A stretch of DNA of 64,000 bases from NCBI GenBank assembly GCA_030167865.1, contig JALAGF010002605.1, positions 1 to 64,000 on the forward strand, given 5' to 3'. The stretch comes from Craspedostauros australis. Its lineage: Eukaryota. Shown piece after piece: positions 9,110-54,200 of the stretch (its first letter is position 1; the number at the start of each line of letters is the position of its first letter). The position numbers and the translations under genes were made by a program. Under the pieces are notes generated by a model, which searched no databases, had not been told where the DNA came from, and was given only the letters and a program-made list of their open reading frames with translations.

Positions 9110-12100
9110 CTAATCAAATCTCTCCATCTCTCCTCGGCGTTGGAACTCCTCAATCTCGTGCTCTCGCCCTTGCAAAAAGTCCTTGTCGGCATTGAGACGT
9201 TGCTCACTGATCTTCCGGCGCTCGAGGAGCTTCTCCTTCTGCTGGGCGGCCCATTCATCGGCATCTCGGCTCTTCAGCGCGATGCGATCGGGTGGCAGAA
9301 GTTCATTGACATCGCGCTTCAGCTGGAGAACCTTGTTGGTGATTTCGCCGATCTCCAATAGTCCGTCGAACTCTCCCCGCGCCGCATCGCCAAGCGAACC
9401 CGCGATATTGTCCACCACTTGGACGAAGGGACGGACATCCAGCGTCGGCATGTCATCGATCAGCTGGGATAGGAGCTCACGACGCTGCTTCGGCGTCTCC
9501 ATGCGAAGCACGTACGTGATGTGATCGATGTACCGGTTGATGCTGCGCGACACCTCCTTGTACACGCCCTGCTGGACGATCTTGAGCACGAACAGCCATT
9601 GGTTGTGCTCAGGGTCATCAAGCAGACCAGCACGCGCCAACCGCGCCTCCTCTTCTGCCACGGCATACTTGAGGTACGCGATGAAGACATCGTCCAGCAT
9701 CGGTCGCATGTCTCGGACGGCGTCCGTCAGCGCCATGGCCGCTTCCTCTTCGGTCTGGTGAGACGGGTCCATGGCGACTTGGCAGATGGAACGGACGATC
9801 TCCAGTTGCTGGGCCTCCAGCTCCGAACCCAACGCCTTGACCTCCTTCAGTAGGAGCTGCGCGGACACAACCAGGTGTCCCAGCAACCGACGCTCCTTGG
9901 CATGATCTGCGTCGAGACTGTCGTCGTCGCGACGAAGTGCATCCAAGTCACGATCGGCCATCTCTGTCATGCGTTCATTGACCAGCTTCACGAAGTTCTC
10001 GGAGAGCAGCAGCTCCTTGTAGTTGGAGGAGATCTCTCGGTGTCGCTCCTCGGGCTGATCCCACATCTCATCCAGCACCATCTGCAATCGAGATTTCTCT
10101 GAGAGGTAGTTCAGCGGATCGTCGATCAGCCCGATCTGCGTCGCGTCGCTGACGACGCGCAGCATACTCTCAACTTGCGCCGCTGTAATCTCCTTCTCTC
10201 CAATGAAGTACGTGTACACCGTCTCGCCTTCATCGTTGGTGCCTTCCACCGTCTTCATCTTCTGCAGCACGTCAGCAGCGAAGCTTGCTTGCTTGACAGA
10301 CTCATCCAGCTGCTTCGGTAGGCGGATTTTCTTGGTGCCTGGGATCGCTCCAGGATAGTTGACGGTCTCGGGATCCACATTTGGGTTGTACACCTCCGGC
10401 CCGGACATGATGTCGAAGACCGGGTTTTGACCAGGTGCGTCCCAATCTTCCTCCGGAGATCGGTTGACACGAACTTCCAATTCGGCAAGGTCGTCGTCCA
10501 GCACACGGGCGTAGCTGGAGATGTCCTTCTCGGCCGCTATCAATGCGTCGATGTCCGCCGCTGTTGTTCCACCCGTTTCTCCACTTATTGCAGACGACAT
10601 GGAATCACCGAAACCGGATTGCCCCTTGTTGTTGAATGTTTCAGTGATGCGACCTTCGGCGAGGCTTTGCCCGGCCTCGAACATGGCGCGGAGCTCTTCG
10701 TCTGCCGTCATTTCCTTGAAGCCTGCTGGAGCTGCTGCTGTTGGTGCTGTGGCATCGTCTGCCCTTCCATCTGTACCATCGCTGACGGCAGGTTGTGGTA
10801 TGGCCTGTGGCGAGGCGGCAGTCGCTGCTGATGATGATGATGTCGGTGCCGTCGTGTCTCTTCCTGTGACGAACTCGGTCGTCACATCTTCGAGGACCTT
10901 CTTCTGTAGTCTTGCCTGCCGTTTCTTGTTCTGCTCCCGCAGCAACTCTTTCGCTTTCTCGAATGCGCCGCTGGCAAAGCCTGCTCCAGCTTCGTTCTCC
11001 TTGGAGATCTTCTTGTCGAACTTCAAAATATCCTCCAGCAATTCTTCTGCCGTCATTGCTTCGGTGTTGTCCGCAATCTCTTCCATTGCTGCCTTTGAAG
11101 CTTCCATTATTTCCTTTTCGATCTGTTGTTGAGACGGTGCTGCCTTGTTCTTGCCCTTGCCGTTATCACTCGGCCGTTCGTCCGCGCCATCGAGTGCCTT
11201 CATCACGTCTTCCGTCGGATCTGACAATGGCAGGTCCTCTGGATTCTCGGATGCTCCGGAGCCATCCAGAACCTTCACGTTTAGCTTTCGGCGTTTGAGC
11301 TTGTCCAGTTGCACTGCTTGCTGTGTCGCAGCGCGCTGCTCCGTCTCCTCCTTGTTACTCTCGTTGGTTTCAGCTTCTGCATTCATTGTGGTGGTTGCTT
11401 CAATGGTTGCATCGATGATCCTGCTGTTGCTGTTGCTGTTCCCATTGCTTCGTTCGCCATCATCCACGGTGATGGGCTCTTTGGATAGTTCAGAAGTTCC
11501 TCGCACTGTCTTTTGAGCTGGCCGCTGTGGTTTTGGTGTTGGTTGCGACTGCGACTGCGACAGCGACTGTGCTTGGGTCTGCTCTGGTTGCTGTGGCTGT
11601 TGCTGCGGCTGTTGCTGTTGGTTGAGTCTTCTATTGGGCTGGCTGGCGTAGTCGTTTGGGCGTGAAATAGTTGTTTTGAATGCAGCGGGTGTGGATTTCT
11701 TGGGTCTCCAGTTGCGGATCATTTCTGGCGACGGGCCTTCATTGTCGCTGTCGTCATCGTCGTCGTCGTCATCTTCTCCACGTACCTTTACTGTTGTCTT
11801 CTTCTTCCTCCTCAGCTTCTTCTTGCGAAGGACCTTTGGCTTAGGTGTCTTCATCTTTGTTCGTTGAAGAGCCATCTTTTTCGCAGCCGCCACGGCAAAT
11901 CCGCCTGCCTTAGTGTCCGCTTGTTGTTGCTTCAATGTCGCTGCCTTCTTCGCAGCTTCCACGGCGAACTCCCCTCCCTCGGACGTTGTCTGTGCCTCCT
12001 TCAGCTTCAGCTTCTGCTTTCGCGCTTCCTCCTGTTTGAGTTCGGCGACCTTTCGCGCCTGCTGCACTGCGAAATCTGCAGGCGATGGTGCAGAAGATCT

Positions 12101-13060
12101 GCGAGGTGCTGGATCAGAAGTTTTCGTGCTTGGGTCCGAAACTTGGATGTCCTTGTCGCCGTCGCCATCGCAGTCGTCACCTTCATCTTCGTCCTTCTTT
12201 TCAGTATCAATGACGGCGTCTATAATTTTGCTGTTCTGTTCTCGCCATGTCTCCTTCGTTTGCAATTCACGGTTGATGATTAAATCATCATCGTCAACAT
12301 AATCTGCGAGGACGACTTGTTCGGCATCTCGGAGGTTCTGTTCTTTTGCAGCTCTCCGTTCCGCAGCGGCGTTGTCCTCGTTGTCAAATAGGATCTTTCC
12401 TGCCATGAAATCTTCCAATCCGCGATCCAACGATTTCAGAATCTTCTGCTCGGAATCCTGAAAGAGGTTGATCATCATGGGTGGTATTGTGGACTGCGTC
12501 TCAGGTTCTTTGCGAACAATGATCATCGCCATGTTGGGCAAGGTCGAAGCTGGTTGATTGTTGCCATCCTTCTCTTGCTTTTCGTCCTTAGCCGGGGCAG
12601 TGTAAATCCCGACGACCTCCACTTTCATTCGAGTGGCATCCGATGATGGGGACAGCGGTGAATCCCATATCAATGTGCACATGTCCTTCTCGTTGTCCAC
12701 TGTCAAGGACTCGTAAGTCATTGGGAGACGCGGCGGCAACTGGTAGTGCTTTTCCAGGTACTCGATGAGGTATCCGAGGAAGAGGACATCAGGGAGGTTC
12801 GGTGGTGGGCGGACGACCTTCTGGAAAGCGATGTTGGATTCTGCCTGAGGTCTCTCCCGCTGTACCGATGCCGATGCCGACGAAGCTGAGTCATACGCAA
12901 AAAGCTGCGATGTCGGCGATCGTTCGCCTCGAAGAATCGTGAATCTCGTGAATGGCAACAAATTCACTTTGCCGTGGCTGGATCCAGACGAGAATGCTGC
13001 TGCTTGATGCAGCAGAAGCAATGCAGCAATCTGGATCAGAGAGAGCATCGCCGACATCAT
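9110..13060 (-). CDS. Large uncharacterised plastid-targeted protein, single exon; likely start MMSAML at 13060
   Basis: Long open ORF. Signal peptide LIQIAALLLLHQAAA followed by F (ASAFAP-type). Low-complexity middle and a helical, ordered-looking C-terminus. Confidence 0.75.
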   Translation of the reverse strand: MMSAMLSLIQIAALLLLHQAAAFSSGSSHGKVNLLPFTRFTILRGERSPTSQLFAYDSASSASASVQRERPQAESNIAFQKVVRPPPNLPDVLFLGYLIEYLEKHYQLPPRLPMTYESLTVDNEKDMCTLIWDSPLSPSSDATRMKVEVVGIYTAPAKDEKQEKDGNNQPASTLPNMAMIIVRKEPETQSTIPPMMINLFQDSEQKILKSLDRGLEDFMAGKILFDNEDNAAAERRAAKEQNLRDAEQVVLADYVDDDDLIINRELQTKETWREQNSKIIDAVIDTEKKDEDEGDDCDGDGDKDIQVSDPSTKTSDPAPRRSSAPSPADFAVQQARKVAELKQEEARKQKLKLKEAQTTSEGGEFAVEAAKKAATLKQQQADTKAGGFAVAAAKKMALQRTKMKTPKPKVLRKKKLRRKKKTTVKVRGEDDDDDDDDSDNEGPSPEMIRNWRPKKSTPAAFKTTISRPNDYASQPNRRLNQQQQPQQQPQQPEQTQAQSLSQSQSQPTPKPQRPAQKTVRGTSELSKEPITVDDGERSNGNSNSNSRIIDATIEATTTMNAEAETNESNKEETEQRAATQQAVQLDKLKRRKLNVKVLDGSGASENPEDLPLSDPTEDVMKALDGADERPSDNGKGKNKAAPSQQQIEKEIMEASKAAMEEIADNTEAMTAEELLEDILKFDKKISKENEAGAGFASGAFEKAKELLREQNKKRQARLQKKVLEDVTTEFVTGRDTTAPTSSSSAATAASPQAIPQPAVSDGTDGRADDATAPTAAAPAGFKEMTADEELRAMFEAGQSLAEGRITETFNNKGQSGFGDSMSSAISGETGGTTAADIDALIAAEKDISSYARVLDDDLAELEVRVNRSPEEDWDAPGQNPVFDIMSGPEVYNPNVDPETVNYPGAIPGTKKIRLPKQLDESVKQASFAADVLQKMKTVEGTNDEGETVYTYFIGEKEITAAQVESMLRVVSDATQIGLIDDPLNYLSEKSRLQMVLDEMWDQPEERHREISSNYKELLLSENFVKLVNERMTEMADRDLDALRRDDDSLDADHAKERRLLGHLVVSAQLLLKEVKALGSELEAQQLEIVRSICQVAMDPSHQTEEEAAMALTDAVRDMRPMLDDVFIAYLKYAVAEEEARLARAGLLDDPEHNQWLFVLKIVQQGVYKEVSRSINRYIDHITYVLRMETPKQRRELLSQLIDDMPTLDVRPFVQVVDNIAGSLGDAARGEFDGLLEIGEITNKVLQLKRDVNELLPPDRIALKSRDADEWAAQQKEKLLERRKISEQRLNADKDFLQGREHEIEEFQRRGEMERFD

Positions 13061-14871
13061 GGCGCGAAGTTGAGTGTTAGAGAGCACAATCTTAGAGTGG
13101 AGTACTTCTTTCGTGACTGGGGGTACTTGATTTCCGCCACTTGGTCTGCCTTGTGATCTGGTCCGCTCGTGAGATACGTGCTGCCTGCCGTCTTTGTGAG
13201 ACCAGCTCTTCGATGATGTGATGCCTTCTTCTCTGTTGGTTTCTTTGATGGGTCCTCTCTTCTCTCTCCTCTTGTGTGGTGGATTTGGGTGGGCTGGTTG
13301 GATGTGGGCGAAGTCTTTTTTGTGGAAGAAGAACAAGACACATGATTTTGATTGGTGACACTTGGTTCGTTCCAGTCAAAGATATGGAGACTAATCCCAT
13401 TTGACGTCATCCCATTCAGTCACGATTAGGCTTCTTTTCTGGTTGCTTTTTGTCCTCTTTTCTTTGTTTCTGGTGATGCTTCGTGGAACAGAGAAGCAAC
13501 ACCTCGCGAACCACAGACAACGACAGAAAATGGGTGGTTGCTGTGGATGAATACCAATACGAACGTACCATAGGTACCGGTCACCGCAGGGCGAACCCCG
13601 AGATAGTTCTCGATGCTGGTCGCAGCGTTTGGTGGACTCATGGCAGCCACATCATGGATTCGGCAGCGATCGCACCGTGCCCCGGTCAAGTTGCGATGTG
13701 GGTTGTATTGCGGGGGCAGTATGGCAGCCAGGGACCACAAGCATCCCCTTCATTCGTCCTCGTCATAGTAGGAGGATCAACGTTCTCACGAATCTTCAGC
13801 CTTTCATTTAGCGCATGGTGTACCGCACCATACTAGTGCAATGCCACACTCCATTGATGTTGGGCACCTTGTGGACGTCGCGAAGTGTGCAGCTTTCTTT
13901 ACGCGCTCGCAGAGCTTGTATTCGTGCTTTCGCGTCTTGCCACGGTCATCAGTATAAAATAGCGCTACTCCACAATGCTATATATGTAAGCATTCCAATA
14001 TATATTCTAATCGTAGTCTCACCATTTCCACACCTGGAGAGTGGTGCAAACTTCTTCAATGGATGTGCACTTCCCACGATCTAGGATCGTACTACTATTG
14101 CACGAAAACGAGTCATTGGCATTCCGGAGAGCGAGAAGGTGGCAGAGCACATACTTTGTGATTCCAGATTGATGCGCCTCCTTTGGGTTGCTGACGTGGT
14201 ACGTGCACAATCCTGCTGGGAGCCTTGGGGTGCATGGTATGTCGGTGTGTGATCGCCATGACGTTGGCGAACCGGACAAGTCTGGCGAGAAGCCAACAGA
14301 CGTCAAGCTTAGCGCAAGGGTGCCACCTCTGAGAAGGTTCTCAGCGTTCGGCCAGGTGTGCGATCAACGATGATTGGCTCAGATCAGCTTCCCAAAAAGC
14401 TCCCAGTGCTCATGCGTTGGGCGTGATTGCAAACACGACGCCAGCACCGTTGTTTCTGGGTGCGCGTCGTCTATCCTCCCAAGAGTCCGAGTAGAGAAAT
14501 GGTGACTCTGTGGTATGCCAAACGCGCTTGTCCATAGTTTCATCACAGTGTTTGTTTCTGCATTCTCCTTCTTCCGAAGTCAAATTGCGTGTTCGTGGTG
14601 CGTTCTCTGCCCATCCTCCCATTGGCGTGTTCAGGTTCGGCGAACAAGGATTGGCGGTGCATGATCTTCGCCACGCTACTCGCGCTGGAAAGGTGGTAGT
14701 GATTGGTTCTACTCGTGTGAGCCAGCTGATTGTTTGGAGGGAGTGGATGGTCACAAATCCTCAGCAACCCATGGCGGATACAATAGATTCCAACCATAAT
14801 TTTTCAAAAGAAGCTCAACCAACACGTTGAAGGCAACGGCCAGAGTGCTTCCATCCAAACGCTTAGCCACG

Positions 14872-21417: not shown

Positions 21418-21744
21418 ATGTTTCAGCACTTCCGACGAATCACGCCGAGGCAGCAGATGTGGGGCGCCGTTGGTGGCGTGATTATCTTTGGTTCCATATT
21501 CAAGGTGGCATACTTCAAGGTGTGCAGAGAAATACTCGTGGAGGATGCGCAGAGAACGCATCGGGATGCCACGGCGCATCTCAACGAGGCACGGAAGTTC
21601 GCCGAGTGGTCCAGGAAGGAAAGGGAACGGCATCGTTCCGAGCTGCCTCCATTGACACCTGAGCAGGACAAGCAGCTCAAGGCGTACCTCAGGATCATGC
21701 AGGAGCATCATGCCTTCAATCCGGATTCCGATTTGCCCAAGTAA
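21418..21744 (+). CDS. Small single-pass membrane protein of unknown function, possibly mitochondrial
   Basis: 108-aa ORF with coding-like GC3 bias: basic N-terminus, hydrophobic WGAVGGVIIFGSIFKVAYF, charged helical tail. Confidence 0.65.
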   Translation: MFQHFRRITPRQQMWGAVGGVIIFGSIFKVAYFKVCREILVEDAQRTHRDATAHLNEARKFAEWSRKERERHRSELPPLTPEQDKQLKAYLRIMQEHHAFNPDSDLPK

Positions 21745-22509
21745 CCGTTCGTCGGGATGTCGCGATCAGGTCATCATGGATTTGGGATTGACACCGTCCC
21801 AGAGACAGACTGAGCAAGAGCGTTGATGCTCACTTATCTTTGTTCGGCCAAGCGGCATCAGCTCTCTTTGGCCTCTTTTGGTTCATCTTTTCTCCGACGA
21901 TTCTCATTCTTGCCACTTCCAAGGGAAAGCTGGTTTCATCAGCATGCACCCATCATGTGTGTGTGTGTGTGTTCATGGAGCTGCAGAGCGACGAGAACAG
22001 TGACCGAGATGGTCTGGTAGGCGTCGCATCGCCACACGAACAGAGAAGTAAGCAGAGAGTTCATGACCGTGCACACGAGTGTACTGGCGCATGAACTGAT
22101 GAGCTGATGACCGAATCGGCAGGTGCACGAAGCGGCAGCAACTACAGCCCGAACTCCTGCTGGGCTTGTGACGAATCTAAAACAGTCCTGCAACCGCATA
22201 TGCGTCACGCACGACAAGCGCAGACGCATCCAGGAAAACGACACGAGGCAAACGACGATGCGGAACAAAAGAGTACTCTAATGAGAAGGAGAAGTATGCG
22301 CTGACGTCCGCGCCTCCTTCTTTTGAGGCCACTCTTCAATTCTTACTGGTACGAGCACTCTATACCGAGCTCTCCACATCACTACAATATTACATAGACC
22401 AACCAAGCAACCAACCCATCAAACAGCCAGCCAGCCAGCCAACCAGAAATTCGAACACGAAGTGCATGGGAACCTCCACCATCGTGCGCGTTTTCTCATG
22501 AGCTCGTTT

Positions 22510-23968
22510 TTATGCAAGACGAGGAGCACCATTGCGATTGACTGCGCTGGGTCCCTGCTCTTCGTACTGTTCGCGGGTGGTGCACCAAGTCTTGAAGCTG
22601 TCGCTTGACGCGATGATGGATCCTCCGACCCATGCCGCATGCTTCTGTCCAGGATGAACCTTCACCTTGAGTTGGGTGCCCGGCATCGATGGCGCTGGAA
22701 ACGGTGAACGACTGCTTGTGTGGGCGCAACGGGGTTTCAAGTTATCAACGGGGACACGATGCGTGAGTATGAATGTTGTTGCACTGCCTTGCACATTGTT
22801 CGTGGACCCGGGTTTCTCATGATTCGTTGCACGCGCAGTGAGCGAATAAGTGCATGCGAGTATTGCCCTACGAGTGCATATTGCACATATGCACAACCCG
22901 CCACTCTGCAACGACAGCAGGGTTGGTTACTTACCTCGCAATGATTCGTTTCAAGTCACGCCTCAATCGACGGTCCAAGCCGAAGACTCCCGTCGGTCCG
23001 CCGCTCAGCACGATGCTTGTATACAGCTCCCGGCGGCAGTCGATGGGACATCCTTGGATGGTGGAATCCAGCAGCTCCGGCAGCGGAAGGAGGTTGTTGG
23101 CGGTGCTCTTGGCCAGCGCCGGACGGAACAGAACCTCGCCAGCCAGATACTTCTCCTCGTCGACTTCGCAGAACCACGGTTGTCCGTTGGGGAGCACGCC
23201 GCCCACACGCTCAGGAACGACCCGGACGGCTTCCTTGGTGAAGTTGGAGCAGACATATCCGTGATCTTCCTTGATCTGACGCGCCACTTCGAAAGAGTGC
23301 GACGGAGACACACCTCGCTTGTTCTTTCGGAGCGCTTGCTGGACGACGCTTGTGGCGTCGTGACCGCCGATGTCCATCTTGCGAATGTGGTCGCGCAGGA
23401 AGTGGCCTTGGTAGACGGGGATGACGGACGTGGTGTTCTTGCCGCTCTCCACTACGGTTCCTGAAAGATCGCCCAGTCCGCCTTCGGCATTGCCCCACGA
23501 GGCGACAAGAGACAGGATGGGACTGGGGTAGAACGACACGCCTGGAACGTTGAATGTCTCGAACATGATCTCGGCCATCATCTCGCGGCTGGCATCGGTG
23601 CAGGAAACGTGCTCCGAGAGCAGGACAGGGTGCTCTTCCGGGCTGCAACGCAGATGGTCGTACATGCAGACATGCCACAGCTGCTCCAGCGCATCCCAAT
23701 CTTGCACGAGGCCTTTTTGGATCATGGGATTGAATGTGTGGGACGAGGTGTGACGAATCATCGTCGCATGGTCACAGACCAAGACGTCTGCCTGCTGGGT
23801 GACGTGGCTGCCACTTGTGCTGCGTCTCTTCGTGGTATTGGTAGCTTCACGCTTCGTTCCAATGGCCGTCATGACCTGGCTGTGGGGCTCCAGCGACCCC
23901 GCGAATCCCATCTTTGTCGTTACGGATCCATTGTCAATGACGATGGCTGGCTTGGTGAAGTGGCCCAT
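22510..23968 (-). CDS. Divergent actin-related protein most similar to Arp3; exons 23968-22935, ~22711-22510
   Basis: IVIDNGS..KMGFAG; AEIMFETFNVPG; SLVASW; IKEDHGYVC; IQGCPIDCRRELY.SIVLSGG; RRLRRDLKRII; AAWVGGSIIAS; TREQYEEQGPS. Confidence 0.85.
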
Positions 23969-25146
23969 GGTTGCTTGCTCCTGTCGCTCCTCTCGTTTCG
24001 TTTACTGGCGGTCTTGATCGTCCGCTTCGTCTGTCTTGCTCTGCTGTTGATTGTGATTGTGATGGCGATCGTGATGGTGATGGGAGGACGGGTGCGATGG
24101 AGGAACGAAGATCATGGGCGAGATGCAGCAGGACGAGATGTAGCAAGGTGAGACGTGATGCCGTGTCGACGCAAGGCAATCAATCAAGTAGAGTGCGAGG
24201 AAGATGACCACGAAGGACGAAGAAGCGAGAAGCAGCGCACAACACATGAGTCGGTTGATGGATGCAGGCAACTCCAATCACCGAGCAGCACATGGTGACA
24301 GCACAGCAAAGACCAAACGTTTCAAACTCACAGGACGTGTCTGGAAGCACCGCGCGGCGTCGTGTACAAACTATGGCACAGCATGGAAGCCACCGCAAAG
24401 ACGCGACTGTTGTCCATGCACACGGGTCCAACACGACAGGAAATTCAAATCGCCGCTGTCGACAAGCGGCGGACTTTCGCGATAGCACCGCACAGGCTCA
24501 ATCGCCTCTGCATATACGTGCACAACTACGAGTGCAACGCCCAACCCATGGGTCCAAGGTGGGTGCATGTTTCCAATGCTCCATGATCGGTCCGCAGCGG
24601 GGGGCGACGTCCTCACCACGACAACCAAGGCAGAATACCATTACACCACCAAGACAATATCTTGTGTTCAGCGTCATGTGAGAACAACCGTTATTTTCAA
24701 AAAATGTGGGCGCGAAAACCGAAATGAGAACTTGTGTTGCTTGTCGTGACGTCACCATTCATGACTGATATTGGTTCCTGAGTCGTGAGCCATCAAGGTG
24801 ACATCTGTCGTGGAAGGTGCTGAGGGGTTGCGTGTCGCCACGATGGCCCAACACCAACAACAACGGGGACGCTCCACGAAACGAACTGAGGCATGGAGGT
24901 TTCTCTGCGACTCCTTCTGATGGTGGACGATGACAAGGGAGACAAGAAGGCTCGCACATTCTCAATTCTGCTTGCTTCGCCTTCGCCACCTTTCCAAGAG
25001 AGACCTGACGACTTCAATCGCAAGTTGCGGAAGTGGCATCATACTCAGAGCTACGAGGAGTAACATTCGTATAGTAGAGCAGGACCAATACACTTTGTAG
25101 AGTACCTCCATATTCTACAAAACAAGACCATACGTAGTAGTAGTAC

Positions 25147-31214: not shown

Positions 31215-33218
31215 AGATATGGTGTTCGTATGGTTGCTGGCGTTGGGCGAATCAGAGAAGTTGGTGTCCGGGCGTGGTGTCGGAGTGCACTCTTGTGGAG
31301 ATCGCTCTCTCTGTTTGCTCGAAAATGTATCACACCATATGTGCTCTTCATCGTCGATCTGCTCCAAGGAGACTGGCACACTGTAGTTTGGAACGGAATA
31401 TCACATCATGCTCGTCGTGTTGTACCTAGTCTACCATCATCATCATAATTAGACTACGGGCACTCGTATGTACTGGTGCTTGCCATAGTCGTACGTAGAA
31501 TAGATCAAGTTGATGCGAATCCAGTTCCGCCTGTCTCTGCCTCTCTGGAGAGGGCTCTACCAACAGAGAATAGTAGTGTAGTGTGGCAGAGTACTACCGC
31601 CCGCAGCGACGAAGCGCGACGCCTTCTTTTCCTCACAACGGATGATCCTTCCGAATTTACCCGCCAAAAATCTGGTTTCTCTCGTTGCCTCAGTCATGTA
31701 TAAAGTACTTATTTAGGTTTATGTGAGTGTGATTCCCGCCGAGACGAACGTATAACGTCCTTAACGGTTTGGTAAGTACGCGAAAGTCGTTTTGGGATCC
31801 CGTGCGCGCTTCGTTCACCGAAAATGTGAGCAACCGCAAATCCAATGAGGGCATTTCACACATGCAACCAAAAAATGTGAGGAAGGTGTCCGGTTTTTGT
31901 GTGTGATTGTCGTTGCGCACACTCGCACATGGTGATTGGTGGGAGGTGTGTTGTGTGTGGCTGGGACGAGAGAGGCAGAGAGTTGGCGGGATGGATGAAG
32001 AAGGCAGCGAAAATAGATGGCGAGAGACACAGACAGAAGCCGCCAACAGGGAGAATAATTGGAATAAAGCCAACAGGGCCAACAGGGCCAACAAGGCCAA
32101 CAAGGCAACAAAGAGAAAGAGCCAAAGAGAGAGTTGTGTCTCTGGAGTGTTCGACTTCGTCCACCCCTTGACACTGTGTGAGCACTCGCAGCAGCACTGC
32201 TGACCGAAACAGATTCAAGGCAAGCACTCCGCTGACAAAGAGACAGCAACTGAACGTTTGCCTTGCATTGGACTGCGCTGCATCGCACTGTTCTACTATA
32301 CTCTACTCGGACCACACTTGCCAACTATACTTTGCGTTGCTCCTCTTGACGGCGAGTTGCATGTGAGAGAAAGAGCAATCCGGGACATCCAACCGAAGAC
32401 AAGGCCAATCCGAGTTCTTCTGGCTTTCAAACAAAACCAATCTCCATCTCAACCCCAACCATCTCAAAGAACGCCAATTATTCAGCACGTGCACTCTTCA
32501 CAAAGTTACTATACGATCCTCAGTGCGATCTACCAAGAGCTACAATACAACGGTCAGCACATAACACAAACACAGCATTAAGACAACATCATACGACATC
32601 ACACATCACACATCACATCGCTCGGCGTGAGATCAGTATCGGATCCTCTGTACACCACAAAATCATCAAACAAGCAAAGAAGAATCCGTCAATCCTCAAT
32701 ACTCGATACTCAGCACCCAACACCCAACACTGCTATATCACTTTTTGTGAATCAACTTTGCTTCCATTTGAATTGCATTGAGGTACTTTTCATTGCATAC
32801 AGTCCGCCAATCACTCAGAACGCTTACAGCACAGCACGGTCAAGTCAATTCAAGTCAATTCAAGCCAAGTCGACGCTGGCGTGGTGCTGTCAACACGAGC
32901 CCCATCACAAAGACAGCAACGGCAACGCAGGCACACGGAAGGCATTTTACGCACAACACAGACCAACACAACCAACACAAACCACCATAGCAGAGTGTGC
33001 AGAGGCCGAGTGGAGTGGCGTGAAGTGGAGTGGAGTGAAGTAGAGAGGACAACAGAGTACACCACCATATTCCGCTGCAGCCATCAACATCGATATCAAC
33101 ATCGATATCAGCACGGTCCTCGGCTCAGCGCTTTACGAGTACGACTACGGGTACGCACATACCTGGTACATGCACACCTACAAGTACTCGTATTCAAACT
33201 CAGACTCGCACTCGCACG

Positions 33219-36200
33219 ATGGGGAACAGCCATGTCTTCCACCACCGCATCCCGGCGGTCACAACGGCATGCCTATCCACAACCGCGTTGACACTCATGG
33301 CGATATCGACAACGAGCTGCTCCATGCTCAACGTCAAGACGATCGATCCCGAGGACCTGCTACTCATCTCCGAAGAAGTCGAGCTCACCACTAACGAAGC
33401 GACGATAGGGGTTCTGTGCAAGACCGCCTTCTCAGAACAGAATGAGGCCATCGACGATCCCATGTGGATGACCAGCCGCAGCTTCACCTACATCTCCCTC
33501 TCTCTCGGTGCCATCGCCTGCGCCCTGGCCTGGGCGGTCAGCACGTTCCTGCCACCCACCACGCTCAACTGGAAGATGATCTCCATCCTCGCGTCCATCA
33601 CGGCGGTCGTCCAGGTTCCCGTCATGCTGCTGCTGGAGGCCTACCCCTGCGTCGACTTTCCAGAAACCCAGTCCTGCCATCTGTCTTCGGCATCCTTCAT
33701 CCTCATTGCCAGCACCGTCTTGTGGATTGGCGTCACCCTCTGCACGCAGTGCATGGATCCGCCCCTGTGGGCGTTGGAACTCTCCGCGTGGAGAACGCCC
33801 AACCGAAAGACCGAGATGATACCCGAAGTCCCCAACCAAATCACCACCACTCAACCCAACAGCAATAACAATCGCAAAAAGAACAAGAACAATGTTCATG
33901 AGGACGATGATCGACAGCGTCTCAGAGCTGCCGCGCCCAAGAAGAGCAACAAGGCCAAGTCGAGCCTCACCACCAAACGTTCCTGGAAGGATCGGCTCTT
34001 TTTCCGTCGCGCCAACAACAATCTCTACATCACCTCCACCGAAGAGTCCTTCCTCAACGATGATGGCGAAAACGACAACGGCGACGGCGATGAGAATAAT
34101 AGCAACCTTGGCCGTCCAAATGGAGGTGAATCTCCTGCGTTGGCCTATGACATGAACACCAGTTTGGATGATCGCGTCATCCTGCGGGTGCTGCCCAATG
34201 GCAGACGTCCTGCGGATCAGGATGCCAAGAGTTTGCATTCCTTCGAAGATTTGGATTCCATGGTGGAGATGGCCGAGGAAGGGCGTCGCAAACAGCAACC
34301 GCAACAGCAGCAACAGCAGCAGCAAGGAGCCTTTGATCGCAGCGCGCCACCGCAATTCTTCCGACCGAGTTTGCCAACTGCGGAAATCAAACCAGACAGA
34401 GACGTGTCCTTCGGTGATGAATTGCAAGTGCGCGGGAAGAAATCATCCTCGCTATCAAATCTGTCGTCACCGACGGTGTCATCATCTTCCAAACGAGGCT
34501 CGCCACCCAGATCCGCCAGTCGTCACGACAATGGTTCCCAAGCAGCATTCTTCAATCCACTCCAACCTTCGGAAGGCAAGGCCAACATCAAGATCATTAA
34601 GGAGAGCGATGTGCCTGTGGACAGCCTTCTAGCTGCCCAGTCGCAGCCGACCAACAAATCTGACAACAGTCCGAGGCAACAACCTCCACAACCTCCGCAG
34701 CAAAAACAGCAAGAACAGGACGGATTGGATCCCATGGCCATCTTGGAGGACCTGCAAGACCAATCCCTCACCATGCCATCCCCCGCTAGCTCCATACGTC
34801 GCACGACGCGCCGCTCGTCAAACAAGGAAAAGACGCCTGCCGAAAAGGGAAAGCGCAACGACAGATTCCGCACTGGCATTCGGGCCTTGACCACCAAAAT
34901 CCGTATGGATACCATCCGTCGCAGCACGCGCGCAACTAACGCGTACGCGCTGATGGATGACAACATGAGCGGCGGAACCTCCAACTATTCCTCGCCACCC
35001 ATCGAGGTCAAGATTGATGCTGCCGATCTCGAGAATGCTGAGAAACTGACTTTGGATGATGATCAACATGACAACGATGAGCGTTTCATGACCCAAGAAT
35101 GGCACAATTTCCACGAAGCGATCAATTCTGGTGTGCGTCAGGCGGAGCTGAATGATGATGATGATGATGATGATGATGCTATTGATCGTGCTTTCGGCAT
35201 TGGCGGTAGTGCTGGTGGTGCTAGTGGCAGCGGAGTCGAAGCGAGGAACGAGGGCGAATTCGCATTTGTCAATGACGCTACGATGTCCGCATCGACACCT
35301 CGCATGCACGGTGTCGAGTCCGATATTTCCTACAGCGATCCGGAGCCACTGTACTCCCAGAGCGGAGACTCAGCAAGCGATCTCTCGTTGAATTACTTCA
35401 GCGCACGCAGTTCATCACAGAACGATAACGTTCGAAGCCAGGCAGCACAGCCGACCAATCGCGACGATAATTCGGCACGATCCACCGGTTCTCAACGACG
35501 AGGTAGGACTGCGGGAGGATCCGCCAACGGCAGCATCGGCAGCAAACGTCGCACCCCAACGCAACGACGACGTGCAGCGTCGCCTGTTCCATCTATCCGT
35601 TCCACGACATCCCTGCTCGACACGTCCATCATTGAAGAGACCGATGCCGATATCATGGCTGAAACTGTCCTGGAGCGGAAGCACCAGCAGCGACTTCGTC
35701 AGCAACAACAGCAGAAACGTCAGCAAGCAACGACGCCACCATCCACTGCACGCGCTGCGGCATATCCACTGAAACGCACATCCTCCGCACCAGAGCAAGG
35801 ATTCGTGTCTCAGCGTGGTCGCGCCGTCAACCGTCAGGCAGCGGGTGGCGCTAAGAGTGTCGCGGCTGCCGCAGCTTCTCCAACGAGCGCACCAAGCCAA
35901 AATCCTCCATCGATTGGGTCAAGTCCAGATAACGAAGTTGCACCGTCGCCAGTAGCCGTTGTTCCAATTGTTAGTGACAATGCTAATGCGCAACAGCAGG
36001 AAGAGCAGCAGCAAAGACAGACGCAGCAGGATCAGACACAAGCACAAGAGCAAGTGCTGGCACAAGAGCAGGAAAAGGAACAAGAGCAGCAGCAGCAGCA
36101 GGAGGAGGAGGAGGAGGAACAGCAAGAGGAACAACCAGACGATGAACTCATGATCAAGACCAACGCGAAGCCAGCAGCTCCGACGCAAGCGGAATCAGAC

Positions 36201-37193
36201 GATGAGCTGAAGATCCCACCAAAGCAACAGGCCGCTCCTGCATCTCCAGCTGTAATTGTACCTGCAACTGCGGCTGTGGCCGTGGCCGTGGCGCCACCGG
36301 CAGATGACGGCGATGAGATCATGACAGCCCAACCGGACCTCTCCCATGACGACGCCGTCAGCGACGAAGACACAGACTTCTCACCTGCTCCGCTTCCCAC
36401 CAATATGGCCGCGACGATCCATCGCAATGTCCCCAGCAGCAACCAATCGACTGGATTTTCCTTGATCAGCGCCAACACTTCCTTTGAAGACGTTTGGAAT
36501 GATGTGGCCGAGGGTGAGAAGGCGAAGACTGCTGGCGGCATGAAGAGCAGTCCAAATGCAGCAACCGGTTCTGCCGCCACTAATCTTGGACAATCCTTCA
36601 GTGGCCAAAATGAAGCTGGCAACACAGCTCGGTCCTTGGCCGTGGGATCACAGTCCAAGACGGCGAGTGTGCCATTCCGCAACAGCTGGAACGATGAGAG
36701 GGATCTGGAAGGCGGTTTTCGCACTAATGCAAACGCGGCTGCAAGAACCCCAACCAAGGGCAATGGCAATGATAATGACAGTCACAATGAAAATGGTATT
36801 CTCAAGATCGATGGCCAAAGTCCAACAACCGCCGATGCCGCAAGCAACCGAGCTGAACTGGCCAGAAACGCCAGGATGCGACGTCTCACCAGCATAACCC
36901 CCGGCAATGATAGCTCGAGCGACCAGAGTGACGGCAACCAATCCGCCACGAAGAGTCATCGATCGGCCCGACTTGCCCGCATCGGTCGTTTGCGCAAGCA
37001 AAATCCGCCCTCACGCGAGGCATCGCCCGGCACACCTACCAAAAGCAATTGCCGCGCAAGCAAAGTGAAGTACGAACGTTTGGAAGACGGCGGTGAATTT
37101 GAAAGCGAAGTGGTGGATGCATTGGATTTGCAACTGATCGAAGTGCGAAGACCGCTCGGCGTCGAATACGGATCCGATGAGGCGTCCATGTAA
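33219..37193 (+). CDS. Membrane protein with an N-terminal four-TM (claudin/tetraspan-like) domain and a ~1130-aa disordered tail
   Basis: 1324-aa ORF. Four hydrophobic segments in the first ~190 aa with Cys-containing loops; the remainder is S/Q/E/R-rich low complexity. Confidence 0.75.
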   Translation: MGNSHVFHHRIPAVTTACLSTTALTLMAISTTSCSMLNVKTIDPEDLLLISEEVELTTNEATIGVLCKTAFSEQNEAIDDPMWMTSRSFTYISLSLGAIACALAWAVSTFLPPTTLNWKMISILASITAVVQVPVMLLLEAYPCVDFPETQSCHLSSASFILIASTVLWIGVTLCTQCMDPPLWALELSAWRTPNRKTEMIPEVPNQITTTQPNSNNNRKKNKNNVHEDDDRQRLRAAAPKKSNKAKSSLTTKRSWKDRLFFRRANNNLYITSTEESFLNDDGENDNGDGDENNSNLGRPNGGESPALAYDMNTSLDDRVILRVLPNGRRPADQDAKSLHSFEDLDSMVEMAEEGRRKQQPQQQQQQQQGAFDRSAPPQFFRPSLPTAEIKPDRDVSFGDELQVRGKKSSSLSNLSSPTVSSSSKRGSPPRSASRHDNGSQAAFFNPLQPSEGKANIKIIKESDVPVDSLLAAQSQPTNKSDNSPRQQPPQPPQQKQQEQDGLDPMAILEDLQDQSLTMPSPASSIRRTTRRSSNKEKTPAEKGKRNDRFRTGIRALTTKIRMDTIRRSTRATNAYALMDDNMSGGTSNYSSPPIEVKIDAADLENAEKLTLDDDQHDNDERFMTQEWHNFHEAINSGVRQAELNDDDDDDDDAIDRAFGIGGSAGGASGSGVEARNEGEFAFVNDATMSASTPRMHGVESDISYSDPEPLYSQSGDSASDLSLNYFSARSSSQNDNVRSQAAQPTNRDDNSARSTGSQRRGRTAGGSANGSIGSKRRTPTQRRRAASPVPSIRSTTSLLDTSIIEETDADIMAETVLERKHQQRLRQQQQQKRQQATTPPSTARAAAYPLKRTSSAPEQGFVSQRGRAVNRQAAGGAKSVAAAAASPTSAPSQNPPSIGSSPDNEVAPSPVAVVPIVSDNANAQQQEEQQQRQTQQDQTQAQEQVLAQEQEKEQEQQQQQEEEEEEQQEEQPDDELMIKTNAKPAAPTQAESDDELKIPPKQQAAPASPAVIVPATAAVAVAVAPPADDGDEIMTAQPDLSHDDAVSDEDTDFSPAPLPTNMAATIHRNVPSSNQSTGFSLISANTSFEDVWNDVAEGEKAKTAGGMKSSPNAATGSAATNLGQSFSGQNEAGNTARSLAVGSQSKTASVPFRNSWNDERDLEGGFRTNANAAARTPTKGNGNDNDSHNENGILKIDGQSPTTADAASNRAELARNARMRRLTSITPGNDSSSDQSDGNQSATKSHRSARLARIGRLRKQNPPSREASPGTPTKSNCRASKVKYERLEDGGEFESEVVDALDLQLIEVRRPLGVEYGSDEASM

Positions 37194-37503
37194 ATATGGT
37201 ACGAACGTCCGAGGGTACTTGGACACGAGTAAACAATGATGGGATAGATCGTACGCAACCAACAACTGGAAACAGAATGAATGCGCGTATTAAAGCGCCG
37301 ATCGAACATAATGTTAGCACTTGAAATGGTTTGCTATGGCAGAATCGTACGAGGATGATGGAAATTAATTAACTGTCTTAGAGAGTATTACTCTATACGA
37401 AATGGACACTCTTGCTTACGTTTGTATCAGAGTAGGATGTTGTGAGATGGCTACAGTTTCACTATTTCATTCGCATGTTGCGGTGCTGCGGAGCGGCCAT
37501 GGC

Positions 37504-38737
37504 TCAGGAGGACTCGGTCATCACTCCCGCAACGCAAACCAGATTGATGCAGTATCGGGACCCCTTGGAATCTGGAAGGTTGTGTCCCAAGTGAGTTCCG
37601 TCCACGGAGACGGTCTCGCCATCCTTCAAGCATCGGACGTATTCCCAGTTGACCTCTGCGAATTGGAAATGGTGGTGAGATAAATGAGTCGCAGTGTGCA
37701 GGGTGAAGCGTTGTAAGAAGAAGAATACAAGCAGATATGTGGACAAGGTGAGGTTTACAGTGCATGTGATCATCAGAAGGAGACAACGAGTTAATGCACT
37801 AGACCACTGGTCCCGATGGGCGTTCAGAAACGTAGCAACTAACCTTCGTCGCGGAAAGATGGCCTGTTGGAATGGGAGAGAGGGAGGGAGGTGTTTGGCC
37901 GTGATGGAGCAGCAGACCAACGTCGAGTACGAGTGCACAATTATGCGGAAAGGATGAAGGAAACAACGCGACGCAAAAGTGGTGAGAAATACGGCAGAAG
38001 ACAGGATTGCATTTGCATATCACACAACATGGATAGTTTGACCACACACCAGATCCTGCCTGTTGCATCAACGCGGTATAGTATCAGCATGGGTAATTTG
38101 AAACATTACCGTACAACTCACCATCCGTGGGCGCGAGATTCGATGAGGAACTGGTCCATGGTGCGCCCGACGGGTGCCGTGAACAACAGCTTGCCAGTGT
38201 TGCTGTCAAAGAATTCAATTGGCGCTGTGGCATTCTTGCATTCCTCCAAGAACTTGGTCTTGGTCTGGAAGTATCCACTGTGCTCGGCATAGTGGCGGTT
38301 GTGATTGCAAATCTGATCTGCCTTCTTGACGTCGCACTCCCAACGCAGGTTTTGTTGGATCGGGCTGTGTTCATGGTTAGGAGTCGTATTGTATTACACA
38401 TCACGCGATGGTCGCATTCATGGGGCATCGAATAGTCGTAAGGATGCAGAGTCAACAGCAGGCAATGGTGGAAATGATAAAGCGTGTGAGAGAGAGCACG
38501 GTTCATGGACATTACCGCAATACTCGTGCGGCAAAACCGCGCATCCAATTACGAAACAATTGCTGCGTTGCTGCTCCGCACTTGCAAACTCCCATCTTCA
38601 TCCTGTGCTGGAGCTTGCGATCCTCTCATAACAGTCGAGTGTGCGTTCACTCACACTGCGGATGTTCCGTAGGCCTTGGGCGACATGATGCTTTCTTCGC
38701 CCATGACGCATGGTGGTGGGAAGGTCTTGTTGCCCAT
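37504..38737 (-). CDS. Atypical MsrB/SelR-like methionine-R-sulfoxide reductase; exons 38737-38655, 38364-38122, 37863-37844, 37655-37504
   Basis: Manual splicing gives MGNKTFPPPCVMGEESIMSPKAYGTSAVPIQQNLRWECD..ICNHNRHYAE..FDSNTGKLLF..ESRAHGWPSFRDEEVNW..GTHLGHNLPD..RYCINLVCVAG. All junctions are GT-AG and in frame. Confidence 0.82.
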
Positions 38738-45783: not shown

Positions 45784-46435
45784 GGTTGGTTGTTGGTTGG
45801 TTGTTGGTTGGTTGTTGGTTGGTTGTTGGTGTTGATATCGGCGGTGCGTTGGATTGTGGCTGTCGCTGGATTGATGGAGTGATGTGCGGCAAGGATTAGA
45901 GCGAGGGCGAGTGGGAGTGGGAGTGGGTTGCAACTGTGTTGGTGGCATTCGCCTTCCCTTTCTTTGTGTTTGGGCGCAAGAGGAATGAGGCGAAGTGTCA
46001 CGTTTCGCAACAGGCCAAATCAAACTAGAACTACTCTCACACTTCGACCGTGGTTTTATAGCCTATGTCTGACCGACGACCGTCACATGTTCATTCTTCG
46101 AAGAAAAAACTCGAAACGCAGGCGAAGCCAAATTCGCTGTTGCTGGAATTTCCCCGACCCACTCGAGTAACTCTGTGGAGCATCATCGTGGTCGTCGCTC
46201 GCAAGAGGATCCACACACCCAAACCCATCACCACCATCCCGAACACCGCAAACAACGCAAACAACGCAAGTTTGAATCGGAGGGAGACCAAACACACAGA
46301 CCGACCATTGACGCGCAACCCTGCGACTATTCTGTGACATCGACCACAACATCGTCACATTCAATCACACTCCATCCCATTCCATCCTCATAAACTCCCC
46401 AAGACCATTCAAGAAGAGACGAACAAAGAACGACC

Positions 46436-48295
46436 ATGAGCGAGGAAGAACCAAAGACAGAGACCCCTCCAGAGGAGGCGAAGAAGACTGAGGAGACCAC
46501 CGAGGCAGGGGCAGGGGCATCAGAGGCAGGGACATCAGAGGCAGAGGCAGAGGCAGCCACGGACGCAAAGACTGAGGAGGAGGCCAAGAAGGAGGCCGAG
46601 CAGACGATCAAGAAGAAGGAGGACAGCGAGGAGCTCACGCGACGGCTGCAGAAGCTGGCGCTCGAACGCCAAAAGGCGAGCACCGGAGACAGGCTGAAGG
46701 TCATCCAGAGCGACCAATCCTCCCATCTCACCGGCGCCAAGACCTTCCAGGAGCTCAACCTCCCCAAGCACCTGCTGGACGCCATCTTCGCCATGGGCTT
46801 CGATCGTCCGTCGGCCATCCAGGAGGAGGCCCTGCCCCGCATCCTCGCCGATCCGCCGCGCAACCTCATCGGACAGGCGCAGTCCGGAAGCGGAAAGACA
46901 GCTGCCTTCACCCTCGGCATGCTCTACCGCATCAACATCGATGACCCAGCCACAACGCAGGCCATCTGCGTCACTCCCACGCGCGAGCTCGCCAACCAGA
47001 TCTTCGAAAAGGCCGTCAAGCCCATGGCCGACAACATGATGGGCCTCAAGATCCAGCTGGCGATCGCCGGTACGCAGCTGGCACGGGGACAGAGAGGCAT
47101 CGATGCCCACATCGTCATCGGAACGCCAGGAAAGATCGTCGAATGGCTCAAGCGCAAGGTCATCAAAACAAACAAGATCAAGGTCTTCGTGCTCGACGAG
47201 GCCGATAACATGGTGGACGAGGGAGGCCACCGCGCCAACTCCGCGCTCATCAAGAAGATGATGCCCAAGAACTGTCAGAGTCTTCTCTTTTCGGCCACCT
47301 TCCCGGAGGAGGTCGTCAAGTTCGCCTCCAAGATGGTGCACAATCCCGACAAGATCCTCATCGAGGATGGTCCTGAATTCCTGGTACGTCTTCTTTGCAT
47401 TAGGTTTACGAGTATTTTCGTGCTTGTTTGGTTCATTGATTGATTGATTGATTGATTGGTTGGTTGGTTTTGCCTATCAATCCATCGCGCTGTGCCATGA
47501 CAGAAGTCTCCGTCGATTTGTTGCATGAAACAGGAGCGCTTTGTGCCTTCGATTCAATCAGCACTTCTTGTAATATCTCACACTCATAATATTACCTCAA
47601 TGCATTTCGATGATAACGGTGACAACGGCGCGTGCTCCTATTCTGCACTGCTACGGCAATTGATGCGTCCAACGAATATTGACGAATGTGACACCGTGGC
47701 ATATTCGCGCGCTCCGCAATGTTGCTTGTTCCGACTGATTTGACAGGTCCTGGATGTCATCAAGCAGCTATGGATCGATACCAGAGGGTACGATGGCGGC
47801 AAATTGCAGTTTCTGTCAGATATTTACTCCCTCCTCACACTCGGGCAGAGCATCGTCTTCGTCGGAACAAAACGCGACGCAGACCAGGTGCACAGAACGC
47901 TGGAGAATGAGGGATACACATGCTCCGTGCTGCACGGTGCCGTCGACGGAGCCATGCGCGACGCAACAATGGAGGCATTCCGCAAGGGCGAGAGCAACGT
48001 CCTCATCACAACCAACGTCCTGGCGCGTGGTGTCGACGTCGATAACGTTTGCCTGGTTGTCAACTACGATGTTCCTGTGGATGGCAACAGAGAACCGGAT
48101 TTCGAAACCTACCTTCACAGAATTGGACGTACTGGCCGTTTCGGACGCAAGGGTACCGCCATCAACCTCATCAATGACGCGCAGTCCTTGAATGTTCTTG
48201 CCGCCATCGAAGGTCACTTCGCTCGTGACGGCAAGGAGATGATTGAGAAGGCAGATGCTGATCCGGAAGGCCTCGCGGATGTCATTGAGATCTAA
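46436..48295 (+). CDS. DBP5: DEAD-box RNA helicase Dbp5/DDX19 (mRNA export); exons 46436-47383, 47747-48295
   Basis: RPSAIQEEALP..PPRNLIGQAQSGSGKT; PTRELA; DEAD; FSAT; ITTNVLARGVD; YLHRIGRTGRFGRKG. Confidence 0.95.
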
Positions 48296-49835: not shown

Positions 49836-50380
49836 GGCGGGGGAGCGCTTGTGCGATGCTCGTGCACTCGCAGCAAGTCCCTCCGATTTTCACAACTGGC
49901 TAAATGTAGTTAAATATTATCCCACTGCCATAAGGCTTCAACAGATCGCAGAGTATGGCAAGAAGATCAATTTATGTGAGGAGAGAGTTGAAGGTGGCAA
50001 CGTGAGAGATTTGTTGGCTTGCACTGTTTTTGGCGCGGTTTTAGCTGGTAGATTGTAGACTTCTGGATCATGTGACAGTATCCACGACTTGACATCCGCC
50101 CACAACCAACCAACCAACGCGAACAACACCAACATCACCAAAGCAGATCCACCAACCAACACATCTTCGGACACACGCACCAAGCACATCAACAAGGTCT
50201 CATCCAGCAGCAGGGGTTCATCCTTCCTCGATTTGGAACATTCAGGAGTGGATTATGACCACTCTGTTCTCCTAATCTCTACTACTTTCAAAGTCACAAC
50301 CGTCAAGTCAAGCAAGGTCACGCAATCCACGTACTCCAGAGTAGAGCACTGCAGATCACTGCAGAGAACAAGAGCAGATC

Positions 50381-53399: not shown

Positions 53400-54158
53400 G
53401 AAGAGTGAATAATGAATGCGAGTAGAAGAAAGGAGATGTGCGCCCGTGATGCTGCTTGAACTTGCTGCTTGCGTTTGGATTTGAGCTTGAGTTGGAGTCG
53501 AATTTCCGTTCTGTTGTGATTAGGGCATGTGACGCGGGTGGATCTCTTGTGTTATGAGATCATCGACGGCAACATTGACGACAACATCGACGACAACGAC
53601 ATCAACAACGGCAACGATGGATGACACGGAGAGTTGATTCTGCGGCAGGAATAATGTTCGTCACCGCTATCTGTTGCCGAACTGCCGAAACTGGAGAAAA
53701 AATGACCAGAACATGATCTCGACCATCAACGTCTTTCTGTTGTTGATGTCACGATCCGACGTTTTGATTGGACAATCGAGTCACTATCAGAATCCAAACC
53801 GTGAATCGAATGGTGAAATAAATCGAACCAGTCGAGCAGACGTATCCAAATGATTCCTGTGAATCAAAATAGCATCAAACAAATGACATCGTGCCGTGTC
53901 GTTTTGTGTCGTGCAACGCACCAAAACAAGACGCGACAAAACGCGAGACGAACAGGGAGGGGGCAATTTTCTGCTGCCTGGCATCACGAATGCTGATGTG
54001 CACGAACCCAACCGCAAAGATCACCCTGCGCACATGTTCGTTCCGACCATAGATCGTACTCAAAGCAACATCTTGCATCGAACACTCGCTGTATAGTCCT
54101 CGCATCATCCATTGATTCGAAAAGAAGAGACTCGTGATCCCCAAATTTCATAAGATTG

Positions 54159-54163
<5 letters not shown>

Positions 54164-54190
<27 letters not shown>
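54164..54190. repeat. (GA)n microsatellite in the VAC14 5' region
   Basis: Seen directly in the sequence. Confidence 0.9.
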
Positions 54191-54198
<8 letters not shown>

Positions 54199-54200
54199 GC

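Follow-up and report, generated by a model that had tools for sequence, protein, structure and literature searches.

Whether any diatom has kept Arp3, which together with Arp2 provides the actin-like subunits of the actin-nucleating Arp2/3 complex, is the question raised by a gene found in a contig of Craspedostauros australis (JALAGF010002605.1 of assembly GCA_030167865.1). The window analysed here is the 64,000-nucleotide stretch formed by positions 1 to 64,000 of this contig, and the Arp3-like gene lies at 22510-23968 on its minus strand. It is a premise of diatom cell biology, derived from surveys of model genomes, that raphe bundles and valve-patterning rings are built without Arp2/3. According to the available text of PMC11420354, and to the same sentence in its preprint, “many diatom species” lack the complex, and this lack serves there as an argument in weighing models of gliding; the corresponding text of PMC3791482 speaks of “some diatoms”. 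A previous interpretation of the locus, made from the letters of the window alone (hereafter the sequence-only reading), had placed the gene in a lineage reported to lack Arp2/3. Such reports do exist, but in the parts of these papers that were accessible they concern many or some diatoms, and not all of them.

We conclude that the encoded protein is very probably an Arp3 orthologue. It is not unique, since Arp3 orthologues of the same diatom group are already present, unremarked, in public data. What is new is a member of a known protein family with an unusual nucleotide cleft, belonging to a diatom group which is undiscussed as far as our literature searches show.

The protein and its place among Arp3 sequences

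The gene consists of two exons, and the following parts were distinguished:

22935..23968, minus strand: exon 1, which runs from the ATG at 23968 over 344 codons plus 2 bases up to the donor GTAAGT; Pfam Actin, E = 3.6e-62
22712..22934, minus strand: intron of 223 nucleotides (nt) with GT..AG ends; the boundary AG/GTAAGT falls at 22935/22934
22510..22711, minus strand: exon 2, with 1 base that finishes a Ser codon, 66 codons and the stop codon TAA (22512-22510); Pfam Actin, E = 5.1e-12
22403..22509, minus strand: 3' untranslated region of at least 107 nt, defined by the mismatch-free run of a public contig to 22403

The span given by the sequence-only reading (22510..23968) was exactly that of the coding region, from the stop codon to the ATG, but the 223-nt intron which splits the frame had gone unmentioned. 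At the junction of 22935 with 22711 the frame is kept (AG+T forms the Ser codon), and the spliced coding sequence of 1236 nt specifies 411 amino acids (aa), with a single, terminal stop codon. Exon 2 corresponds to positions 355-408 of the 410-position Pfam Actin profile, and both exons jointly to positions 5-408. The motifs previously quoted are all found in the translation: LVASWGNAEGGLGDLSG, GVSPSHSFEVARQIKEDHGYVC, CPIDCRRELY and RRLRRDLKRI in exon 1, and WCTTREQYEEQGPSAVNRN in exon 2.

The Arp3 signal resides in exon 1. When compared with solved structures, this exon gave 157 matches (E ≤1e-5); the best five were Arp3 (209.2-193 bits) and the other 55 of the best 60 listed were actins (158.6-145.4 bits), with no Arp2, Arp1 or nuclear actin-related protein (ARP) among these best 60. 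The top match in the ESM Atlas was the “Actin-related protein 3 family” (0.97), followed by Arp2 and ARP6 clusters (0.96). In both comparisons Arp3 ranked ahead of actin and of all other ARPs. An AlphaFold model of exon 1, based on a 45-row alignment, had a predicted local distance difference test (pLDDT) value of 89.9. When it was submitted to Foldseek, the first 20 ranks went to chain A of entries for the Arp2/3 complex (TMq 0.81-0.88), with actin following from rank 21; chain A is named Arp3 in the solved-structure search (1k8k, 1tyq, 1u2v, 2p9i/k/l/n/p, 9dlx, 9dlz). As modelled, the three-dimensional fold of exon 1 is Arp3-like. In a large protein collection the nearest sequences were ten unnamed environmental ones (42-54% identity; two JGI-labelled “actin-related protein 3”), with plant Arp3 next (38% identity). 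Among 1.84 billion 50%-identity representatives there was one close match (P0006, 366 bits), the next one scoring 232 bits.

The phylogenetic analysis gave the same placement. A FastTree phylogeny was built from 252 rows, i.e. the window protein and the stored actin-family hits of 300-480 aa (251 of 345 kept; the length filter removed P0017, a 525-aa protein named Arp3). The window protein was located inside a 92-row clade (support 100), which holds all ten rows named Arp3 and none of the rows named actin (seven), centractin (three) or Asgard (seven). Subsequently, 65 chosen rows were analysed with IQ-TREE, in a quick run under LG+C20 with posterior mean site frequencies (PMSF) and in a careful run under LG+G4, using actin, Asgard actins and the Arp1 clade as outgroups. 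The supports obtained for the relevant groups were:

Arp3 clade, 53 rows, stem 0.82-1.1: 100 under LG+C20; 100/100 under LG+G4
Diatom group, 20 rows: 92 under LG+C20; 88/82 under LG+G4
Clade A, to which the window protein belongs, 10 rows: 100 under LG+C20; 100/100 under LG+G4
Clade A with P0246: 90 under LG+C20; 92/91 under LG+G4
Clade B, 9 rows: 100 under LG+C20; 100/100 under LG+G4

In three actin/ARP trees, with no outgroups other than actin, Arp1 and Asgard actins, the window protein lies within the Arp3 clade with support of 100. Together with the solved-structure matches and the Foldseek comparison of the AlphaFold model, this bears out the view that the protein is Arp3-like and neither an actin nor Arp1.

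Labelling of the outgroups required some caution, as the source names in the actin family are unreliable. The rows P0051 and P0054 (chytrid “centractin”) and P0112 were tried as Arp1 anchors and rejected, since they clustered among the actins; the “centractin” rows P0051, P0054 and P0112 stem from chytrids and a microsporidian. The Arp1 clade was labelled instead through the solved-structure matches of the clade of P0094, a different set of rows. P0303, P0305 and P0302, considered as other outgroup labels, turned out to be actins. P0392 (Pseudictyota dubia, EukProt/MMETSP, 656 aa) reached a high profile score, but consists of conventional actin copies strung together; it is probably an assembly artefact and was dropped.

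The diatom Arp3 group comprises 20-22 rows. Cluster look-up identified P0246 as a protein of Coscinodiscus wailesii (EukProt/MMETSP, EP00586_P005551) and P0532, from clade B, as one of Chaetoceros neogracilis (EP00979_P014354). Another member of clade B, P0025, is CTEN210_09988 of Chaetoceros tenuissimus, named hypothetical protein / Actin in the database. Thus, Coscinodiscus and Chaetoceros are the centric members of the group, and its pennate-type members are the window protein and about nine environmental lineages. Because the group includes Coscinodiscus wailesii and two Chaetoceros species, it appears that some diatoms have retained Arp3 and that the model species have lost it; vertical retention in the former with loss in the latter would be the simplest history.

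Nucleotide cleft and Arp3-type insertions

In actins, the two phosphate-binding loops hold the phosphates and the metal, and a His residue aids hydrolysis. The loops of the window protein, and the insertion preceding the second of them, are encoded as follows:

23912..23935, minus strand: first phosphate-binding loop, residues 12-19, DNGSVTTK, with V16 where most rows have Gly
23459..23503, minus strand: Arp3-type insertion after the conserved SLVAS, residues 156-170, ASWGNAEGGLGDLSG, identified in the alignment
23426..23449, minus strand: second phosphate-binding loop, residues 174-181, ESGKNTTS, as against DSGDGTTT or DSGDGVTH in relatives

The window protein does not have the canonical nucleotide loops (DxG[ST]G..K and DxGDG..H). 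At the column of V16, Gly is found in 136 of the 160 non-Arp3 rows, 50 of the 70 non-diatom Arp3 rows and 10 of the 21 other diatom rows (the latter also have Phe in three, Ser in three and Ala in one); Val occurs in none of the 251 other rows. In the second loop, K177 is shared with one of these 251 rows, N178 with two and E174 with 13. The column of S181 is occupied by His in 137/160 non-Arp3 rows, 44/70 non-diatom Arp3 rows and only 3/21 other diatom rows, the remaining 18 of which carry T, Q, S or N. Given these near-unique cleft residues and the Ser at the place of the usual His, it is doubtful, judging by the residues, that the protein is a canonical ATP-dependent Arp3; the orthology is not lowered by the changes in the loops. 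We infer that nucleotide handling may be altered across the diatom group, and most extremely in the window species, in which the residues at three of the most conserved cleft positions are near-unique compared with the 251 other rows.

Some of the other features typical of Arp3 are retained and others, described below, are shortened. The insertion after SLVAS, which corresponds to a 7-column gap in the actin and Arp1 rows, is filled in all Arp3 rows and in the window protein; the alignment also shows an enlarged loop at residues 40-60 and an extended C terminus. The motif CPID.RR.LY is present, as is AEIMFE with its Glu, a residue found in 70/70 non-diatom Arp3 rows and replaced by Gln in 98 of the 160 non-Arp3 rows. 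All nine columns that are invariant across 45 Arp3 rows are unchanged in the window protein.

Transcript, host and surrounding genes

A single public run matched part of the locus (share 0.19, assembled contigs). It contained one contig of 336 nt, which covers 22403-22711 and 22935-22961 with 0 mismatches and omits exactly 22712-22934 (CT..AC ends on the plus strand). We read this contig as spliced mRNA, because a GT..AG intron has been precisely excised from it. The locus is expressed in spliced form, in agreement with the check on transcription suggested by the sequence-only reading, on the strength of one perfectly matching public contig from a run whose type is listed as “RNA?”. The contig reaches from the 3' end through exon 2 to 27 nt into exon 1, the remainder of which is uncovered; this has no bearing either way. 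The acceptor of the intron is of the NAGNAG type, with a second in-frame AG located 3 nt upstream (22716-22715, minus strand); the public contig takes the downstream AG, and use of the upstream one would add one Ser. Upstream of the gene, on the same strand, an ATG-started frame of 81 aa rich in His, Ser and Gln (24002-24247, minus strand) ends 33 nt before the Arp3 start codon; it could be an upstream open reading frame (ORF), part of the 5' leader, or a chance occurrence.

The end of exon 1 has the same position in the ORFs of 10 relatives. We also scanned metagenome contigs for the locus (80 loci kept of 149 relatives, nearly all of them 1-2.5 kb long), and the window's own clade was represented by two contigs only, L001 and L002. 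In both, exon 1 ends at the same codon and is followed by a short intron and a second exon in another frame. A small gene adjacent to the Arp3 gene is also conserved:

21418-21744, plus strand: conserved neighbour gene encoding 108 aa, arranged tail-to-tail with the Arp3 gene
L001 1727-1972 and L002 1152-1385, minus strand: its counterparts, with 67% identity to the window ORF 21418-21744

Since the intron position and the convergent neighbour are kept in these two independent contigs, the locus is natural and not a chimeric join, which removes one of the doubts raised beforehand. A Pfam search with the small gene 21418-21744 yielded sub-threshold noise only, and the metagenome loci, mostly 1-2.5 kb long, revealed no wider synteny and no partner genes.

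The guanine-plus-cytosine (GC) content is even across the window (0.49-0.57), which contains ordinary eukaryotic genes encoding a Vps4-like AAA ATPase, Vac14, SMC, TBCC, NudC, a DEAD-box helicase, a DHHC palmitoyltransferase, spermidine synthase, a PUA protein and an RNA methyltransferase. The Vac14 frame (54138-57200) shows 73-75% identity to unnamed sequences. Of the listed matches that carry an organism name, 11 of 12 are diatoms and the twelfth is labelled Alexandrium, which supports the earlier view that the organism is a diatom. The Bacillariaceae are closest (Nitzschia sp. Nitz4 and a Bacillariaceae metagenome-assembled genome, 71%; Pseudo-nitzschia, 69%; N. inconspicua, 68%), and the matches in Fistulifera, Mayamaea, Epithemia and Thalassiosira have lower identity. 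Judged from Vac14, the host is a raphid pennate diatom, near to but not within the named Bacillariaceae.

Several other genes of the window are distributed over more than one frame. The SMC protein (N-terminal, hinge and C-terminal parts) extends over frames 57602-58342, 59268-60467 and 60477-62042 (minus strand), and the DEAD-box helicase (DEAD and Helicase_C) over frames 46394-47440 and 47744-48292 (plus strand), a layout that fits short introns such as that of the Arp3 gene. Pfam Methyltrn_RNA_3 (PF02598) is spread over two overlapping frames, 50345-51280 and 51216-52145 (plus strand; profile positions 1-147 and 146-302), which suggests an intron or a frameshift. Strong AT skew was observed at 10-12 kb (-0.395 at 10001-12000) and at 32-38 kb (+0.18 to +0.24 at 32001-38000). 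These parts lie inside the very long frames 9110-13375 (minus strand) and 33039-37193 (plus strand), in neither of which a Pfam family was found; the skew points to coding sequence that is repetitive or of low complexity.

Functional explanations and known systems

The explanation which we favour as a whole, and hold to be rather probable, is that the locus is a real Arp3 gene of the diatom group whose product continues to serve as Arp3 in a nucleator of the Arp2/3 type. It would be a transcribed, spliced nuclear gene of a raphid pennate diatom encoding an Arp3 orthologue, and the protein would seed actin filaments as part of a nucleator that is possibly reduced or divergent. That it works within a complex together with Arp2 and ARPC partners has, taken separately, slightly less than an even chance. 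In the accessible part of a transcriptome paper on Skeletonema subsalsum, four differentially expressed “Actin-related protein complex” genes are reported, so some diatoms may have ARPC subunits. Our literature search found no description of a diatom Arp3, which is no proof that none exists, as most subscription journals lie outside the search.

A number of observations weigh against this explanation. As regards identity, the trees contain no Arp2 or nuclear ARP rows, and the distinction from Arp2 rests on the solved-structure and Foldseek matches. Moreover, exon 2 alone has actins as all of its best 60 solved-structure matches and Arp3 as none of them; because of this, the C-terminal motif is not diagnostic of Arp3, and its presentation as Arp3-specific by the sequence-only reading has to be abandoned. 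The RNA nature of the public run is a guess, and its splice junction is anchored by only 27 nt on the short side, less than the 31-nt rule of the mapping tool. The nucleotide cleft is abnormal (V16, K177, N178, S181), in the whole of clade A the subdomain-4 loop lacks about 7 residues and is nearly as short as in actin, and the window protein has an insert at the exon junction that falls about 10 residues short of those in Arp3 rows. No ARPC family was found in 159 of the 161 window ORFs of at least 130 aa (the other two being the gene itself), a result that concerns the 64-kb window only and has no bearing on the rest of the genome; these 159 ORFs matched only the housekeeping families listed above, and none was a partner gene.

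The end branch of the window protein is also the longest of its clade (0.73-0.85 compared with 0.095-0.48; its sister P0009 has 0.25). Part of this length may reflect species distance, because the extra divergence is similar in Arp3 and in the neighbour gene: in three-way comparisons, the window Arp3 is 48-51% identical to those of L001 and L002, which share 62%, and the corresponding values for the neighbour gene are 67% and 76%. Finally, no named pennate diatom protein was present among the best 120 hits of either search, so that the pennate branch rests on unnamed environmental sequences and the window. The same protein collection includes proteomes of Nitzschia, Pseudo-nitzschia, Fistulifera, Mayamaea and Epithemia, as seen from the Vac14 matches. 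The distribution hints at a patchy pattern of retention in which the sequenced model pennates have lost the gene, best-120 lists being dependent on gene models.

A bolder version of the favoured explanation is possible, though we regard it as unlikely: some diatoms, including raphid pennates, would keep a cryptic, strongly diverged Arp2/3-type nucleator missed by the surveys of model genomes, in which the window Arp3 would be a nucleotide-independent “pseudo-ATPase” (V16, K177, N178). Such a complex might serve in a stage of the life cycle or a process in which the model diatoms proceed differently, such as amoeboid gametes, auxospore or valve morphogenesis, or endocytosis.

Comparably unlikely, or very slightly more so, is an orphan Arp3, left after the loss of Arp2 and ARPC1-5 and repurposed as an actin-fold protein that does without nucleotide, with a role such as actin bundling or capping, gamete or valve morphogenesis, or a function in the nucleus or at the spindle. 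The reports, in the available text of PMC11420354 and PMC3791482, of many or some diatoms without the complex are in line with this, as are the unusual cleft residues, the partial loss of the subdomain-4 loop throughout clade A, the long branch, and the lack of a partner gene within the 64-kb window. It is opposed by the maintenance of an open spliced frame, with many columns typical of Arp3 unchanged, in three or more diatom lineages, and by the Skeletonema subsalsum genes, which, as far as the accessible part of that report goes, make ARPC subunits conceivable in some diatoms.

Retention of Arp3 function must also be weighed against decay, i.e. a gene still transcribed but nonfunctional, which has lost nucleotide binding and is heading for loss. 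The longest terminal branch of the clade (about three times that of its sister P0009), the near-unique residues at three cleft positions and the shortened insert at the exon junction could all be expected of such a relic, but the 411-codon spliced frame is unbroken, its splice sites are canonical, a spliced product has been seen, all 9 of the 9 invariant columns persist, the predicted fold of exon 1 is confident, and the branch may partly be due to species distance. We therefore consider decay improbable. That the gene is not the Arp3 of this diatom at all (a divergent actin, Arp1, a nuclear ARP, a contaminant or a chimeric stretch) is largely refuted and extremely improbable, since the actin affinity of exon 2 and the ESM Atlas scores of the Arp2 and ARP6 clusters are countered by the solved-structure matches, the three trees and Foldseek, by the exclusion of the Arp1 clade and the actins with support of 100, by the even GC content and diatom-like window genes (Vac14), and by the conservation of the intron and the neighbour in two independent contigs.

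With the retention of an Arp3 subunit as the preferred explanation, the consequences for diatom biology can be considered. An intact, spliced Arp3 gene in a raphid pennate, with relatives in Coscinodiscus and Chaetoceros, means that loss of Arp3 is not diatom-wide, and branched-actin nucleation in any diatom becomes a testable question with named genes. The group also offers a natural experiment on the nucleotide pocket of Arp3, with DSGDG in close relatives and ESGKN in the window species.

Among known systems, canonical Arp3 (bovine, 1k8k chain A; fission yeast, 3dwl chain A) comes closest both in sequence (209 and 193 bits) and in fold, where it matches the window model with a TMq of up to 0.88, and it falls in the same clade of the trees. 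It shares with the window protein the SLxAS(W) insertion, the loop at residues 40-60, AEIMFE with Glu and CPID.RR.LY, but the identity is only 34-36%, the phosphate loops are DNGTGYTK and DSGDGVTH in canonical rows as opposed to DNGSVTTK and ESGKNTTS, and the window protein has a subdomain-4 loop shorter by about 7 residues and a shorter insert before the last strand. Moreover, canonical Arp3 sits in a seven-subunit complex, whereas the system of the window is known from the Arp3 gene alone. Conventional actin and Arp1 belong to the same Pfam family (Actin) and have the same overall fold, and exon 2 taken alone is nearest to actins; however, they are separated from the window protein by a branch of 0.82-1.1 (support 100), actin scores about 50 bits lower than Arp3 against it (solved structures), and both lack the Arp3-type insertions.

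The Arp3-like proteins of Chaetoceros tenuissimus, C. neogracilis and Coscinodiscus wailesii are members of the same diatom group (92; 88/82), that of Coscinodiscus wailesii being the sister of the window's clade (90; 92/91). All of them have non-canonical residues in the second phosphate loop, but they show 35-42% identity to the window protein and none has V16, K177 or N178; the Chaetoceros-type clade, unlike the window protein, keeps a full-length subdomain-4 loop.

The atypical Arp2/3 of Plasmodium (Hentzschel et al., covered by the review PMC13340494) is, according to the available text of that review, a case of a lineage long listed as being without the complex, in which highly divergent subunits were found later. 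Five subunits have been shown there biochemically to form a complex, with a role at the spindle and kinetochore, compared with the one subunit that the window provides, from the gene alone. The same review asks whether other lineages of supposed loss hide divergent complexes, and its reference list includes the diatom survey of Aumeier et al. (2015). By analogy, a cryptic diatom nucleator would be a parallel to the atypical complex of Plasmodium.

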